In this document: piece after piece, positions 9,214 through 47,052 of the stretch
How the letters are laid out: each line of letters begins with the position of its first letter
Position numbering within the stretch: the first letter of the stretch is position 1
Source of the DNA: Eledone cirrhosa
Taxonomy: Eukaryota
NCBI GenBank assembly: GCA_964016885.1
Contig: OZ024748.1
Span: 13,950,001-14,014,000, forward strand
Direction: 5' to 3'
DNA: 64,000 nt
Translations under genes and position numbers: made by a program
The notes under the pieces: generated by a model
Database searches by the model: none
Seen by the model: the letters and a program-made list of their open reading frames with translations, nothing else
What the model was told of the DNA's origin: nothing

Positions 9214-9270
9214 TTTTATCTGATGAAAACGTACTGAAACACCATTGTACCTTTGAAATATGTATAATAA
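9214..9270 (+). ncRNA. Type I hammerhead motif (related to the 43741 family)
   Basis: TTTTAT-CTGATGA-AAACGTAC...GTACCTTT-GAAA-TATGTATA-ATAA. Confidence 0.55.
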
Positions 9271-13255: not shown

Positions 13256-13285
13256 AGACAGGCGTGGTGGCCATGAGGTGGTTGT

Positions 13286-16200
13286 GATGGTTGTTGGTCA
13301 GTGGTGGTGGTGTAGTGTCGCTGGTAGTTGGTCAGTGGTGGTGGTGGTGTAGTGTCAATGGTTGTTGGTCAGTGGTGGTGGTGTAGTGTTGATGGTTGCT
13401 GGTCAGTGGTGGTGGTGGTGTAGTGTCAATGGTTGTTGGTCAGTGGTGGTGGTGTAGTGTCGCTGGTAGTTGGTCAGTGGTGGTGGTGTAGTGTCAATGG
13501 TTGTTGGTCAGTGGTGGTGGTGTAGTGTCAATGGTTGTTGGTCAGTGGTGGTGGTGTAGTGTCAATGGTTGTTGGTCAGTGGTGCTGGTGTAGTGTCGCT
13601 GGTAGTTGGTCAGTGGTGGTGGTGTAGTGTCAATGGTTGTTGGTCAGTGGTGGTGGTGTAGTGTCGATGGTTGTTGGTCAGTGGTGGTGGTGGTGTAGTG
13701 TCGATGGTTGTTGGTCAGTGGTGGTGGTGTAATGTTGATGGTTGTTGGTCAGTGGTGGTGTAGTGTTGATGGTTGTTGGTCAGTAGTGGTGGTGTAGTGT
13801 TGATGGTTGCTGGTCAGTGGTGGTGGTGTAGTGTTGATGGTAGTTGGTCAGTGGTGGTGGTGTAGTGTCGATGGTAGTTGGTCAGTGGTGGTGGTGTAGT
13901 GTCAATGGTTGTTGGTCAGTGGTGGTGGTGTAGTGTTGATGGTTGTTGGTCAGTGGTGGTGGTGTAGTGTTGATGGTTGTTGGTCAGTGGTGGTGGTGTA
14001 GTGTTGATGGTTGTTGGTTAGTGGTGGTGGTGTAGTGTTGATGGTTGTTGGTCAGTGGTGGTGGTGTAGTGTTGATGGTTGTTGGTCAGTGGTGGTGGTG
14101 TAGTGTTGATGGTTGTTGGTCAGTGGTGGTGGTGTAGTGTTGATGGTTGTTGGTCAGTGGTGGTGGTGTAATGTTGATGGTTGTTGGTCAGTGGTGGTGT
14201 AGTGTTGATGGTTGTTGGTCAGTAGTGGTGGTGTAGTGTTGATGGTTGCTGGTCAGTGGTGGTGGTGTAGTGTTGATGGTTGCTGGTCAGTGGTGGTGGT
14301 GTAGTGTTGATGGTTGTTGGTCAGTGGTGGTGGTGTAGTGTTGATGGTTGTTGGTCAGTGGTGGTGGTGTAGTGTTGATGGTTGCTGGTCAGTGGTGGTG
14401 GTGTAGTGTTGATGGTTGCTGGTCAGTGGTGGTGTAGTGTCGATGGTTGTTGGTCAGTGGTGGTGGTGTAGTGTCGATGGTTGTTGGTCAGTGGTGGTGT
14501 AGTGTTGATGGTTGGTCAGTAGTTGTGGTGTAGTGTTGATGGTTGCTGGTCAGTGGTGGTGGTGTAGTGTTGATGGTTGCTGGTCAGTGGTGGTGGTGTA
14601 GTGTTGTTGGTTGTTGGTCAGTGGTGGTGGTGTAGTGTTGATGGTTGTTGGTCAGTGGTGGTGTAGTGTTGATGGTTGTTGGTCAGTAGTGGTGGTGTAG
14701 TGTTGATGGTTGTTGGTCAGTAGTGGTGGTGTAGTGTTGATGGTTGCTGGTCAGTGGTGGTGGTGTAGTGTTGATGGTTGCTGGTCAGTGGTGGTGGTGT
14801 AGTGTTGATGGTTGCTGGTCAGTGGTGGTGGTGTAGTGTTGATGGTTGTTGGTCAGTGGTGGTGGTGTAATGTTGATGGTTGTTGGTCAGTAGTGGTGGT
14901 GTAGTGTTGATGGTTGCTGGTCAGTGGTGGTGGTGTAGTGTTGATGGTTGCTGGTCAGTGGTGGTGGTGTAGTGTCGCTGGTAGTTGGTCAGTGGTGGTG
15001 GTGTAGTGTCAATGGTTGTTGGTCAGTGGTGGTGGTGTAGTATTGATGGTTGTTGGTCAGTGGTGGTGGTGTAGTGTCGATGGTTGTTGGTCAGTGGTGG
15101 TGGTGTAGTGTTGATGGTTGCTGGTCAGTGGTGGTGGTGTAGTGTCGATGGTTGTTGGTCAGTGGTGGTGGTGTAGTGTTGATGGTTGTTGGTCAGTGGT
15201 GGTGGTGTAGTGTTGATGGTTGTTGGTCAGTAGTGGTGGTGTAGTGTTGATGGTTGCTGGTCAGTGGTGGTGTAGTGTCGATGGTTGTTGGTCAGTGGTG
15301 GTGGTGTAATGTTGATGGTTGTTGGTCAGTGGTGGTTTAGTGTTGATGGTTGTTGGTCAGTAGTGGTGGTGTAGTGTTGATGGTTGCTGGTCAGAGGTGG
15401 TGGTGTAGTGTTGATGGTTGCTGGTCAGTGGTGGTGGTGTAATGTTGATGGTTGTTGGTCAGTGGTGGTGTAGTGTTGATGGTTGTTGGTCAGTGGTGGT
15501 GGTGTAGTGTTGATGGTTGCTGGTCAGTGGTGGTGGTGTAATGTTGATGGTTGTTGGTCAGTAGTGGTGGTGTAGTGTTGATGGTTGCTGGTCAGTGGTG
15601 GTGGTGTAGTGTTGATGGTTGCTGGTCAGTGGTGGTGGTGTAGTGTCGCTGGTAGTTGGTCAGTGGTGGTGGTGTAGTGTTGATGGTTGCTGGTCAGTGG
15701 TGGTGGTGTAGTGTTGATGGTTGCTGGTCAGTGGTGGTGGTGTAGTGTCGATGGTTGTTGGTCAGTGGTGGTGGTGTAATGTTGATGGTTGTTGGTCAGT
15801 GGTGGTGTAGTGTTGATGGTTGTTGGTCAGTAGTGGTGGTGTAGTGTTGATGGTTGCTGGTCAGTGGTGGTGGTGTAGTGTTGATGGTTGCTGGTCAGTG
15901 GTGGTGGTGTAGTGTTGATGGTTGCTGGTCAGTGGTGGTGGTGTAGTGTTGATGGTTGTTGGTCAGTGGTGGTGGTGTAATGTTGATGGTTGTTGGTCAG
16001 TGGTGGTGTAGTGTTGATGGTTGTTGGTCAGTAGTGGTGGTGTAGTGTTGATGGTTGCTGGTCAGTGGTGGTGGTGTAGTGTTGATGGTTGCTGGTCAGT
16101 GGTGGTGGTGTAGTGTTGATGGTTGCTGGTCAGTGGTGGTGGTGTAGTGTTGATGGTTGTTGGTCAGTGGTGGTGGTGTAGTGTTGATGGTTGTTGGTCA

Positions 16201-19192
16201 GTGGTGGTGGTGTAATGTTGATGGTTGTTGGTCAGTAGTGGTGGTGTAGTGTTGATGGTTGCTGGTCAGTGGTGGTGGTGTAGTGTTGATGGTTGCTGGT
16301 CAGTGGTGGTGTAGTGTCGATGGTTGTTGGTCAGTGGTGGTGGTGTAGTGTCGATGGTTGTTGGTCAGTGGTGGTGTAGTGTTGATGGTTGTTGGTCAGT
16401 AGTGGTGGTGTAGTGTTGATGGTTGCTGGTCAGTGGTGGTGGTGTAGTGTTGATGGTTGCTGGTCAGTGGTGGTGGTGTAGTGTTGTTGGTCAGTGGTGG
16501 TGGTGTAATGTTGATGGTTGTTGGTCAGTGGTGGTGTAGTGTTGATGGTTGTTGGTCAGTGGTGGTGTAGTGTTGATGGTTGTTGGTCAGTAGTGGTGGT
16601 GTAGTGTTGATGGCTGCTGGTCAGTGGTGGTGGTGTAGTGTTGATGGTTGCTGGTCAGTGGTGGTGGTGCAGTGTTGATGGTTGTGGGTCAGTGGTGGTG
16701 GTGTAATGTTGATGGTTGTTGGTCAGTAGTGGTGGTGTAGTGTTGATGGTTGCTGGTCAGTGGTGGTGGTGTAGTGTTGATGGTTGCTGGTCAGTGGTGG
16801 TGGTGTAGTGTCAATGGTTGTTGGTCAGTGGTGGTGGTGTAGTATTGATGGTTGTTGGTCAGTGGTGGTGGTGTAGTGTCGATGGTTGTTGGTCAGTGGT
16901 GGTGGTGTAGTGTTGATGGTTGCTGGTCAGTGGTGGTGGTGTAGTGTCGATGGTTGTTGGTCAGTGGTGGTGGTGTAGTGTTCATGGTTGTTGGTCAGTG
17001 GTGGTGGTGTAGTGTTGATGGTTGTTGGTCAGTAGTGGTGGTGTAGTGTTGATGGTTGCTGGTCAGTGGTGGTGTAGTGTCGATGGTTGTTGGTCAGTGG
17101 TGGTGGTGTAGTATTGATGGTTGTTGGTCAGTGGTGGTGGTGTAGTGTCGATGGTTGTTGGTCAGTGGTGGTGGTGTAGTGTTGATGGTTGCTGGTCAGT
17201 GGTGGTGGTGTAGTGTCGATGGTTGTTGGTCAGTGGTGGTGGTGTAGTGTTGATGGTTGTTGGTCAGTGGTGGTGGTGTAATGTTGATGGTTGTTGGTCA
17301 GTAGTGGTGGTGTAGTGTTGATGGTTGCTGGTCAGTGGTGGTGTAGTGTCGATGGTTGTTGGTCAGTGGTGGTGGTGTAGTGTCGATGGTTGTTGGTCAG
17401 TGGTGGTGGTGTAATGTTGATGGTTGTTGGTCAGTGGTGGTTTAGTGTTGATGGTGGTTGGTCAGTGGTGGTGGTGTAGTGTTGATGGTTGCTGGTCAGT
17501 GGTGGTGGTGTAGTGTTGTTGGTCAGTGGTGGTGGTGTAATGTTGATGGTTGTTGGTCAGTGGTGGTGTAGTGTTGATGGTTGTTGGTCAGTAGTGGTGG
17601 TGTAGTGTTGATGGTTGCTGGTCAGTGGTGGTGGTGTAGTGTTGATGGTTGTTGGTCAGTGGTGGTTGTGTAGTGTCGATGGTTGTTGGTCAGTGGTGGT
17701 GGTGTAGTTTTGATGGTTGTTGGTCAGTGGTGGTGGTGTAATGTTGATGGTTGTTGGTCAGTGGTGGTGGTGTAGTGTTGATGGTTGTTGGTCAGTGGTG
17801 GTGGTGTAGTGTCGATGGTTGTTGGTCAGTGGTGGTGGTGTAGTGTCGATGGTTGTTGGTCAGTGGTGGTGGTGTAGTGTTGATGGTTGCTGGTCAGTGG
17901 TGGTGGTGTAATGTTGATGGTTGCTGGTCAGTGGTGGTGGTGTAGTGTCGATGGTTGTTGGTCAGTGGTGGTGGTGTAGTGTTGATGGTTGTTGGTCAGT
18001 GGTGGTGGTGTAGTGTTGATGGTTGCTGGTCAGTGGTGGTGGTGTAGTGTCGATGGTTGTTGGTCAGTGGTGGTGGTGTAGTGTTGATGGTTGTTGGTCA
18101 GTGGTGGTGGTGGTGTAGTGTTGATGGTTGTTGGTCAGTAGTGGTGGTGTAGTGTTGATGGTTGCTGGTCAGTGGTGGTGGTGTAGTGTTGATGGTTGCT
18201 GGTCAGTGGTGGTGTAGTGTCGATGGTTGTTGGTCAGTGGTGGTGGTGTAGTGTCGATGGTTGTTGGTCAGTGGTGGTGGTGTAATGTTGATGGTTGTTG
18301 GTCAGTGGTGGTGTAGTGTTGATGGTTGTTGGTCAGTAGTGGTGGTGTAGTGTTGATGGTTGCTGGTCAGTGGTGGTGGTGTAGTGTTGATGGTTGCTGC
18401 TCAGTGGTGGTGGTGTAGTGTTGATGGTTGCTGGTCAGTGGTGGTGGTGTAGTGTTGATGGCTGTTGGTCAGTGGTGGTGGTGTAGTGTTGATGGTTGTT
18501 GGTCAGTGGTGGTGGTGTAGTGTTGATGGTTGTTGGTCAGTAGTGGTGGTGTAGTGTTGATGGTTGCTGGTCAGTGGTGGTGGTGTAGTGTTGATGGTTG
18601 TTGGTCAGTGGTGGTGGTGTAGTGTCGATGGTTGTTGGTCAGTGGTGGTGGTGTAGTGTCGATGGTTGTTGGTCAGTGGTGGTGGTGTAGTTTTGATGGT
18701 TGTTGGTCAGTGGTGGTGGTGTAATGTTGATGGTTGTTGGTCAGTGGTGGTGGTGTAGTGTTGATGGTTGTTGGTCAGTGGTGGTGGTGTAGTGTCGATG
18801 GTTGTTGGTCAGTGGTGGTGGTGTAGTGTCGATGGTTGTTGGTCAGTGGTGGTGGTGAAGTGTTGATGGTTGTTGGTCAGTGGTGGTGGTGTAATGTTGA
18901 TGGTTGTTGGTCAGTGGTGGTGTAATGTTGATGGTTGCTGGTCAGTGGTTGTGGTGTAGTGTTGATGGTTGCTGGTCTGTGGTGGTGGTGTAGTGTTGAT
19001 GGTTGCTGGTCAGTGGTGGTGGTGTAGTGTTGATGGTTGCTGGTCAGTGGTGGTGGTGTAGTGTTGATGGTTGCTGGTCAGTGGTGGTGGTGTAGTGTTG
19101 ATGGTTACTGGTCAGTGGTGGTGGTGTAGTGTCGATGGTTACTGGTCAGTGGTGGTGCTGTAGTGTTGATGGTTGCTGGTCAGTGATGGTGG
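13286..19192. repeat. 5.9-kb minisatellite, 34-bp unit GGTCAGTGGTGGTGGTGTAGTGTTGATGGTTG(T/C)T (~175 copies)
   Basis: Period 34 (e.g. 13982 to 14016). 31- and 37-bp variants arise from GGT gain or loss. Confidence 0.98.
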
Positions 19193-19388: not shown

Positions 19389-19422
<34 letters not shown>

Positions 19423-19470
19423 AACGAGTAGGACCCCGACGGCTGAGCTCAAGCCGTTTCGACTGGGTTT
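19381..19470 (-). mobile_element. Fragment of the GAAACGGC..GCCGTC half-hammerhead family with TA-centred palindrome
   Basis: Minus strand GTCGAAACGGCTTGAGCTCAGCCGTCGGGGTC. 19381-19430 is a perfect palindrome around (TA)15. Confidence 0.7.
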
Positions 19471-19619
19471 ACTTGCCTCGTGGTGTCTTTGTTCTTTTTT
19501 CCTGTCTACCAGGGATTTTCTACCCGATTTTCTTAGACGTGTTCACAAATATTTCTACATTTTCTCACAAACCCGCGTGCACACACAGATACATAGAGAT
19601 AGAGATAAATAGATGTGTT

Positions 19620-19658
<39 letters not shown>

Positions 19659-19659
19659 C

Positions 19660-19861
19660 GGCGATGAATTAGTTTTGCGAGGTTTTTTATATGAAATCGT
19701 GTGTCGAAACAAATATTGTTATACTTGGGGAGGGTCATATTTGTGTAATATTGCCAGAATTAATTAAGACACAGAAGCGAGAAGCAAAAACCAACAAAAC
19801 AGTGAGTGTGTTCTGTTATTAATTCTGGCAATATTACACAAATATGACCCTCCCCAAGTAT

Positions 19862-19869
<8 letters not shown>
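19660..19869 (+). mobile_element. TA-associated element with intrinsic terminal hairpin (52-bp arms); second copy reversed at 52067-52270
   Basis: 19713-19764 and 19818-19869 are inverted. Preceded by GAAACAAATATTGTTA, resembling an HHR 3' half. Confidence 0.7.
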
Positions 19870-19900
<31 letters not shown>

Positions 19901-19903
19901 TAC

Positions 19904-19934
<31 letters not shown>

Positions 19935-19989
19935 TATATATACACATATATACATACATACACATATACACATATATACATACATACAC

Positions 19990-20054
<65 letters not shown>

Positions 20055-20056
<2 letters not shown>

Positions 20057-20633
20057 GTTATTGAGGCGGTTTGTATATTTTATCATTCTATCTGCTTCTT
20101 GGTTAAATATTTCAAACAAATGTGGTTTTTCAACCCTTGTAATTTTAGACACACGGTTTACTGTGTTTCTTACTATATATTATTAATCAGCTCAGTATTT
20201 ATACTTTGAGCTTAATAGTTACAGAGTTCCAATTGAGTTTTAACTCTAATTTTCATATATATTTCTGCTCCCTCACAAGTTGAGCTTATTAAGTTGTGTG
20301 TGTTGGACTGTTATTTCTATTCAATACACGCTTACCACGTTTGACTAGCGGCGCACGAGGTGACAAATTCATCTTTCTGTGTGAACGTTGGCAAATAGTG
20401 TTTGTGGCATTTAATCAGATTCTCTCGCTGATGAAGCCCAGGATTATCTGTTACAAACACACTCAGGGCGAAACAGATTAGGGATAATCTGTCCGAGAGA
20501 TATAATGGTTATTGAGGCGGTTTGTATATTTTATCATTCTGTCTGCTTCTTGGTTAAATATTTCAAACAAATGTGGTTTTTCAACCCTTGTAATTTTAGA
20601 CACACGGTTTACTGTGTTTCTTACTATATATTA
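20055..20633 (+). mobile_element. Retrozyme-like / non-autonomous Penelope-like element: 451-nt unit with 128-bp terminal direct repeat, in (TA)n
   Basis: 20055-20182 equals 20506-20633 (1 mismatch). Intact HHR inside, no credible ORF, microsatellite on both flanks. Confidence 0.85.
20421..20500 (+). ncRNA. Intact type I hammerhead ribozyme
   Basis: Stem I TCTCTCG/CGAGAGA; core CTGATGA (20428-34); stem II GCCC/GGGC; GAAA (20470-73); stem III ACAGATTA-GGGA-TAATCTGT; GUC triplet 20491-20493. Confidence 0.92.
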
Positions 20634-20672
20634 TATATATATATATACACATATACACACGCATATATAAAC

Positions 20673-20705
<33 letters not shown>

Positions 20706-21192
20706 CATACGTATATATATACCACATACACACATATATACATATACATATATATATACACACACATATATATACACACACACACATATACAAACACACA
20801 CACATATATATACACAGACACACATATATATACACATACACACACATATATATATATATAAATAATTGTTCTCTTCCATACAAATTAAATTAGTTGTCCA
20901 CTGAGACATTAATAAGATATTAGAATAAGTAAATGAGTCAATACAATGTTAATTGCTCTTATTCTCATTGCTATGTTACACTGTCCAAAGCTCTCATATT
21001 TTATGATTGTGTCCACATTTCACATTGGTGTATTAATTATTATTATAATCACTCTAATGAAATAAGTGGAATGTCACAGGAGGAAAATAAATGTTGAATG
21101 CTTAAAATCGAAGCCAATACTACATATGTATATATCTCCAAAGATTACACACACAAACACATATCTATTATATATATATATATATACACAAA

Positions 21193-22241: not shown

Positions 22242-22279
<38 letters not shown>

Positions 22280-22282
<3 letters not shown>

Positions 22283-22466
22283 GGAACCAGTAAGACCCCG
22301 ACGGCTGAGCTCAAGCCGTTTCGACGACTAATTCTGAATTAGCCGTCGAAACGGCTTGAGCTCAGCCGTCGGGGTCTTACTGGTTCCTATTACCCACTAT
22401 ACTACCCTAAGTATTGAGTACTTTGGTGCGTTATGGTCCACCTGGTTCCTTACCACATTTCCTTCG

Positions 22467-22470
<4 letters not shown>
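22280..22470 (+). mobile_element. Half-hammerhead family copy with 55-bp fold-back palindrome at its 5' end
   Basis: 22280-22334 and 22336-22390 are inverted (1 mismatch). GAAACGGC-loop-GCCGTC followed by the family tail ...GGTGCGTTATGGTCCACCTGGTT. Confidence 0.8.
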
Positions 22471-38046: not shown

Positions 38047-38220
38047 TGTATGTCTTATTTGCGTATATATAAATATATATAAACGAAAACGTTTTCGTTT
38101 ATCGTTTTCGGTGCGCCCGGCCGATTACCTCACTCGATATGCAAATTAGGCTTCTCAGCAGTTAATATGCATAAGGAAAGTATATACTTTCATACGTTCA
38201 ATCATCTAGCAGGAAGGTAT

Positions 38221-43381: not shown

Positions 43382-43424
<43 letters not shown>

Positions 43425-43425
<1 letters not shown>

Positions 43426-43839
43426 GTAGGAGGTGAGTTTTATTGTAGTACAATAAAGCAATGCAGATATCGGATAAGAAGCACTCTACAGTTTGTGGGA
43501 CTGGAGTATGCATAATATAAGATCAAAAGATGGTTAAAGGAGTTCCATATATTTTATTATGCGCATTTCAAAAACAAACATCATCAAGCAATAATATTTG
43601 TGTTTTCATCAGATAAAACAGGAGAACATGATATGAAGGCTAAAAAACACTTGTGGATAGTGCAGTTTTAAATCAACATATGTTGATTTAAAACTGCACT
43701 ATCCACAAGTGTTTTTTAGCCTTCATATCATGTTCTCCTGTTTTATCTGATGAAAACACAAATATTATTGCTTGATGATGTTTGTTTTTGAAATGCGCAT
43801 AATAAAATATATGGAACTCCTTTAACCATCTTTTGATCT

Positions 43840-43847
<8 letters not shown>
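43425..43847. mobile_element. HHR element with perfect 336-bp spacerless palindrome (43512-43847)
   Basis: 168-bp arms, identical by eye, centred on CAACAT|ATGTTG (43679/43680). Confidence 0.9.
43741..43807 (+). ncRNA. Type I hammerhead with long stem II and palindromic stem III; mirror copy on minus strand 43552-43618
   Basis: TTTTAT-CTGATGA-AAACACAAATATTATT..GATGATGTTTGTTTTT-GAAA-TGCGCATA-ATAAAA. Confidence 0.8.
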
Positions 43848-43881
<34 letters not shown>

Positions 43882-46800: not shown

Positions 46801-47052
46801 GGAGGTGAGTTTTATTGTAGTACAATAAAGCAATGCAGATATCGGATAAGAAGCACTCTACAATTTGTAGGACTGGAGTATACATAATATATAAGATCAA
46901 AAGATGGTTAAAAGAGTTCCATGTATTTTATTATGCGCATTTCAAAAACAAATATCATCATGCAATAACATTTGGTTTTTCATCAGATAAAATGTGAAGA
47001 CATGATATGAAGGTTAAAAAACACTTGTGAATAGTGCAGTTTTAAATCAACA

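Follow-up and report, generated by a model that had tools for sequence, protein, structure and literature searches.

How does a short non-coding repeat with a hammerhead-ribozyme motif come to be inserted, as one unit and part of the next, in a TA microsatellite? The question is raised by a stretch of 64,000 nt from Eledone cirrhosa (GCA_964016885.1, contig OZ024748.1, positions 13,950,001 to 14,014,000), here called the window, and by the element at its positions 20055-20634. An earlier note had taken the element for a young cephalopod retrozyme copied from a self-cleaved or circular RNA by a Penelope-type reverse transcriptase (RT). The explanation preferred here, to which a probability of about 0.6 is assigned, is that the element is a non-LTR retrozyme inserted by the RT/endonuclease of a Penelope element, with ligated circles as the probable template. 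Retrozymes are an already known class, of which the window family is probably a further member: it has a type I hammerhead in each unit, a short non-coding unit without an LTR-type ORF, head-to-tail copies with two ribozymes, and many dispersed copies.

The window copy and its family

The window copy lies on the forward strand and consists of a full, permuted unit of 451 nt (20055-20505), delimited by comparison of the repeat, of the hammerhead and of natural monomers found elsewhere, followed by the first 129 nt of a next unit (20506-20634), 1.29 units in all. The two 129-nt repeats (20055-20183 and 20506-20634) are offset by 451 nt and differ only at 20090 (A) and 20541 (G). The unit length and terminal repeat of the earlier note are thereby borne out, its 128 bp differing from the measured 129 nt only at the end that merges into TA. 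The same holds for insertion into (TA)n, as TA-rich tracts lie on both sides (19866-20053 and 20625-20858); the TA/CA microsatellites of the flanks (19866-20053 and 20635-20858) represent the target, and no target-site duplication is discernible in them. The unit is also non-coding as claimed: a long ORF is absent, and the longest stop-free stretch in a translation of the four-fold unit is 81 codons. The 3' end of the copy corresponds to a site, S1, which falls at ~20183 in the first unit and is the likely start of reverse transcription here. A second end site, S2, is placed by the arm ends of other copies at ~20262, and the 79 nt between them (20184-20262, forward strand) form a 'tail'. Both sites are TA-rich. 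Since the window copy carries one ribozyme, two cuts could not free a monomer from it.

Three patterns of the family have 328, 583 and 512 exact matches in the 3.0-Gb genome, whereas reversed controls gave 0; the family is thus multicopy, as the earlier note had supposed, and not single-copy. A non-random sample of 127 regions was drawn from the best DNA matches and the first listed pattern matches, mostly on contigs C1 and C2; 124 regions with 203 arms remained once three segmental duplicates and a stray piece at 75% had been set aside. Across these regions the copies are non-coding, permuted and variable at their 5' ends, and the permuted and partial-tandem copies with TA flanks that the earlier note had proposed to look for are present. 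Natural monomers, measured from cut site to cut site, span 424-487 nt and fall into several subfamilies, among which indels shift the length of the tail. The description of the family as young fits one wave of copies; an older wave, 78-79% identical to the window unit and using both S1 and S2, exists as well. Two intact ribozymes one unit apart occur in at least 13 of the 124 regions, and such loci could release monomers.

Longer arrays are also found. The C2 array (G000:C2:364.755-364.758 Mb, L012-L017) has 7.2 units, six of them identical at 457 nt, and its 5'-most partial unit diverges from these; it may have been amplified locally very recently or may result from the assembly. The C1 array is a mosaic. 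Arrays of more than ~3 units have been amplified at least partly as local DNA, and long arrays were rejected as proof of rolling-circle replication because the C2 and C1 arrays show such amplification. Separately, one head-to-head insertion occurs with identical flanks four times (G000:C1 217.43, 217.54, 217.63 and 217.66 Mb; L053-L060), either because the segment was duplicated recently or as an artefact of the assembly.

The genome also holds several molluscan haemocyanin gene copies (G000:C1:173.7-173.9 Mb; C26:21.9-22.0 Mb, an inverted pair; and C27). A haemocyanin unit of this genome has its best PDB match in 1js8 (855 bits, the next single-unit chains reaching 738 and 488 bits), an octopus haemocyanin, the next two chains being from a squid and a gastropod; this agrees with the cephalopod assignment of the earlier note and makes an octopod likely.

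Other repeats of the window resemble the element in one respect or another. A different TA-inserted family (19420-19620 and 22262-22470) carries the 3' half of a hammerhead-like motif and has two ends 17 and 97 nt downstream of it, an 80-nt tail, with the 22.3-kb copy arranged head-to-head. Between TA runs at 19660-19865 lies a short inverted-repeat remnant whose end matches another two-ended family, and hammerhead-like motifs of other families occur at 9220, 45841 and 51582. Spacings of 420-483 nt are found in three or more other hammerhead families (~482 in L012/L017 and L048, ~420 in L019 and L029, ~465 in L069 and L082; also near 38220 of the window), which are probably further retrozyme families. 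A 34-bp minisatellite of ~176 copies occupies 13285-19192.

The hammerhead and the helix of loop II

The type I hammerhead at 20421-20500 (forward strand) is identified by its motif, an Rfam match and conservation, with cleavage predicted after C20493. The stems and core of the intact ribozyme claimed earlier are all present: a stem I of 7 bp, a CUGAUGA core, a stem II of 4 bp, GAAA, a stem III of 8 bp closed by a GGGA loop, and the GUC site. The match to Rfam Hammerhead_1 (20422-20499; 22.9 bits, E 0.0013) appears when 161 nt are scanned and was missed in a 5-kb scan; the model search suggested in the earlier note thus recovers the motif, although below the gathering score of 34. A strict stem scan gives one match in the window vs none in 60 block-shuffled windows. 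Three features go beyond the earlier description, namely a nucleotide inserted between A9 and stem II (A20435; A or T among copies), a loop II of 26 nt, and an 8-bp helix, here helix X, formed between 20398-20405 and the loop II strand 20453-20460 (both forward strand), which was recognised by folding and conservation and is predicted to act as a pseudoknot or an off-switch. An extra nucleotide past A9 is shared with the (+) hammerhead of the CChMVd viroid, in which an additional A between A9 and G10.1 is tolerated by an active ribozyme (PMC1636495).

Comparison of the old and young waves shows that core and stems are kept at 48 of 49 positions (core 13/13, stems 35/36) vs 323 of 402 elsewhere (p=0.001). 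In loop III none of the four positions is retained. The ribozyme is under purifying selection. Helix X is likewise conserved, at all 16 of its positions. Among 15 sequences, neither the hammerhead nor helix X showed covariation above that of shuffles; the ribozyme has one compensatory pair in this set.

When the 5' flank is included, nested folding of both the insertion and the circle predicts helix X in place of stems I and II, and the probability of these stems is 0.0 in the full unit and the circle. In 11 of 15 diverse copies the fold of lowest energy contains helix X, with the ribozyme fold 0-8.5 kcal/mol higher, and the helix is worth ~-8 kcal/mol in most copies; from the order of the sequence, its strands are transcribed earlier than stems I and II can close. 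We put an activating pseudoknot and an off-switch at near-even odds. Pairing of loop II with the GAAAC core, as an alternative, was rejected (probability ≤0.01). The 20400-20520 construct of the earlier note cuts through helix X. Folded as circles, five monomers are predicted to be stable (z -2.2 to -5.8).

Ribozymes of Mytilus lack the usual contacts between loops 1 and 2 (PMC7229834), and in maybe ~40% of surveyed hammerheads a pseudoknot takes their place (PMC3088659). Unlike in these, loop II of the window family pairs with a segment of the 5' flank that precedes stem I by 15 nt. The long stem III also differs from the minimal, dimer-dependent hammerheads of Penelope-like elements (PLEs; PMC4209133), and folding predicts a blocked or clamped ribozyme in the circle, where most animal retrozymes are expected to keep theirs free (PMC7229834).

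Insertion ends and the Penelope elements

The 3' ends of the copies are strikingly uniform. Of 203 arms, 179 end at S1 (88) or S2 (91), ~141 and ~220 nt downstream of the predicted cut and hence ~79 nt apart, and 24 end elsewhere; a TA-rich run follows in 151 of the 179. Head-to-head insertions number 67, and in 12 of these one or both outer ends lie elsewhere. The remaining 55, with both outer ends at S1 or S2, almost invariably combine one of each: 54 are S1+S2, one is S1+S1 and none is S2+S2 (p=1.6e-15 vs a coin toss). In all 40 comparable pairs the two arms lie closer together than either does to the median other arm, and in 27 they are best or tied; the other 14 of the 54 pairs overlap too little to be compared. 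One dominant source could likewise produce this agreement.

PLEs generally leave inverted copies and tails and favour (TA)n (PMC8557442). A purified anole PLE starts reverse transcription at two internal sites, leaves a 'tail', cleaves AT-rich DNA and is predicted to be a dimer; it takes unprocessed RNA, and its own ribozyme is dispensable in vitro (PMC11167929). The window family resembles such endonuclease-bearing PLEs (anole Poseidon): past the hammerhead lie two fixed 3' ends, one of them with a tail, and 5' truncation, partial tandems, inversions and AT or microsatellite targets are common to both. Two such ends, truncation, partial tandems and inversions are the features expected of PLE-mobilised elements. 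It differs from them in having no ORF and in a tail of ~79 nt rather than 30-40 nt, the PLEs of this genome having ~89 nt.

An intact, young PLE-like family is present in the same genome as numerous near-identical open frames of 821 aa. The Penelope-like label of the protein rests on its motifs, on look-alikes in the Atlas, where GIY-YIG, RVT_1 or HTH_animal domains are found on some members of its neighbourhood, and on a weak RVT_1 match in another fragment. Pfam and PDB searches with the protein gave no useful match. The 821-aa family has a different, minimal hammerhead and ends ~37-41 and 126-128 nt past it (~89 nt apart), followed by TA, and each of the three head-to-head pairs seen combines the two. 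Copies of its terminal region with the minimal hammerhead also lie in the window (43420-43850 and ~46890-47000), that at 43.4-43.9 kb being head-to-head with one long and one short end. Two-end patterns with other tail lengths recur in other hammerhead families of the genome. Because the two fixed ends and the head-to-head pairs match the Penelope elements of the genome, the retrozyme was likely Penelope-copied, and mobilisation of the family by a PLE is considered very probable; the geometric part of the earlier inference, with its two fixed ends, head-to-head arms and TA flanks, is upheld.

The unit and the 821-aa family have this geometry in common and no sequence similarity (nothing better than E 0.5). 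Nor was a helper sharing sequence with the unit found in the two PLE families examined, the second only in part, from 52,650 PLE candidates at first look, of which a fraction was examined. Many PLE-like fragments lie in the flanks of sampled copies. By eye, a CTC...GAG motif recurs just past S1 in several families, and folding gave no consistent hairpin there.

Could the unit instead be the pseudo-LTR of an unsampled autonomous PLE, with the copies as its 5'-truncated pieces? Vertebrate retrozyme families have been linked to PLE pseudo-LTRs in a study that, by its own statement, did not look at other organisms in this respect (bioRxiv 10.64898/2026.07.22.740005), and those of Xenopus resemble such pseudo-LTRs; as a fraction of the candidate PLEs was covered, the same might hold here. 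However, the arms run head-to-tail into a previous unit and not into coding DNA, and the PLE hammerheads seen in this genome have short stems III. Moreover, one of the 127 regions joins the unit to PLE coding DNA without a TA run, and there the junction is atypical: at L075:2886-4300 a short microhomology links the unit, at a non-standard end, to endonuclease-coding DNA from another PLE family. None of 30 old-wave loci inspected by alignment is joined to PLE coding DNA. Continuity with an RT-GIY-YIG ORF is thus confined to that region, the sampled unit is more than a terminal repeat belonging to an autonomous element, a reading against which the earlier note had cautioned, and the pseudo-LTR explanation is very unlikely. 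Likewise, no PLE pseudo-LTR match was found for the window family among the PLEs examined, vs 21 PLE matches among the Xenopus families (bioRxiv 2026.07.22.740005).

The template and the explanations weighed

The 5' end of the window copy (20055, equivalent to 20506) does lie 12 nt past the predicted cut, as the earlier note had observed. Its reading as a mark of the cleavage site fails across the family. In the least 5'-biased set, 67 arms on C1 with an exact pattern upstream of S1, no arm stops 3 nt or less from the cut, and 66 of 73 passes (~90%) read through it; 5' ends at the cleavage site are not supported. A 22-nt zone around the cut contains 7 ends vs 4.0 expected (p=0.11), and other TA-rich spots have an equal or greater excess. 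The 12-nt offset is not diagnostic, because 5' ends do not cluster at the cut family-wide. Priming at S1 or S2 on a linear monomer after cleavage would yield copies of 141 or 220 nt that lack the catalytic core, so the template must have been ligated, uncleaved or jumped. The mean upstream run is ~405 nt. Between successive passes, 721 of 730 diagnostic sites are identical, where independent draws would give 286 disagreements, and pass-specific differences rarely recur. Such agreement fits a single circular template; one source dominating at a time would look similar. Rare variants common to all passes of an arm number 10, vs 113 confined to a single pass, which counts against the circular-template model. 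On balance a circular template is somewhat favoured.

Penelope mobilisation from ligated circles could then proceed as follows. A locus with two ribozymes one unit apart would be transcribed, the hammerheads would excise a monomer of 450-490 nt, as predicted, and the monomer would be ligated, as in the retrozymes of coral, mussel and axolotl. A PLE endonuclease would nick (TA)n, and the RT would begin internally at S1 or S2 and move upstream for ~400 nt on average, usually past the cut, leaving permuted copies of 0.1-2 units. Where a presumably dimeric enzyme primed from both target strands, one at S1 and the other at S2, head-to-head arms would result. A fuller version, offered tentatively, sees in the family a circular ribozyme RNA parasite copied by a dimeric Penelope protein, which would prime from both target strands at two fixed sites of one template and recognise that template by a short structural cue rather than a shared pseudo-LTR, with the conserved helix of loop II gating cleavage.

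The same enzyme and family would be retained if a tandem or partial-tandem locus were transcribed and its linear RNA copied uncleaved, with the ribozyme held off by helix X and serving another step, e.g. 5' processing or release from host transcripts. The predicted blocking by helix X in unit and circle would favour uncleaved templates, as would its predominance in minimum-energy folds and its early transcription, and read-through is explained equally well. However, copies made without a circle could only shorten, given their mean run, yet unit-length lineages span waves 22% apart, and successive passes of these persisting lineages agree. The energy of helix X could also add to the active fold as a pseudoknot, for which a precedent exists (PMC3088659), and comparable animal repeats form circles (PMC7229834); an uncleaved template is a real but less probable rival. 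An RT jumping from the 5' end of one cleaved linear monomer to the 3' end of another might account for the slight, non-significant excess of ends just downstream of the cut, the window copy included. This appears improbable, as no arm of the C1 set comes as close as 3 nt to the cut, other TA-rich spots show at least as strong an excess, and successive passes agree too well. Spread of a satellite or DNA-level mobile repeat by recombination in TA tracts, with the ribozyme as a relic, would suit the local amplification of the two long arrays and the TA-richness of both end sites. It is scarcely credible, as the 3' ends are fixed while the 5' ends vary, PLEs follow the same one-of-each rule and the ribozyme is under selection.

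The preferred reading, a retrozyme mobilised from ligated circles, has parallels in known systems. Circles of non-LTR retrozymes have been shown in coral, mussel and axolotl, with PLEs as candidate helpers (Cervera and de la Pena, 2020, PMC7229834), whereas the window family is known here from DNA copies. Circular PLE intermediates have been proposed (PMC4209133) and are unsupported in the one purified system; eight of nine predicted Xenopus retrozymes showed no cleavage in vitro (bioRxiv 2026.07.22.740005). The family shares with metazoan non-LTR retrozymes a non-coding unit of low GC content, a type I hammerhead, an arrangement as monomers, partial tandems and arrays, coexistence with PLEs and a stable predicted circle. 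In contrast, its unit slightly exceeds the 170-400 nt reported for invertebrates (PMC7229834), and most copies are dispersed pieces of 0.1-2 units or head-to-head pairs in (TA)n. The literature searched yielded no cephalopod retrozyme, no retrozyme insertion geometry, no insertion-footprint evidence and no conserved loop II helix, the supplements of PMC7229834, PMC4209133, PMC13282606 and the 2026 preprint lying outside the search; the main text of a 2026 Octopus vulgaris repeat annotation does not contain the words ribozyme, hammerhead or retrozyme.

No host function is indicated for the family. In the literature examined, PLE mobilisation of animal retrozymes has so far rested on co-occurrence and pseudo-LTR similarity. 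The window family adds evidence at the level of the insertions themselves, in a two-start, one-of-each geometry like that of young intact PLEs in the same genome. With a 451-nt substrate bearing a long-stem ribozyme and a candidate enzyme family of 821 aa, the choice between circular and linear templates and the two-site dimer model become directly testable. If the circular-parasite reading is true, the family would be a direct genomic record of Penelope enzymes reverse-transcribing RNA circles.
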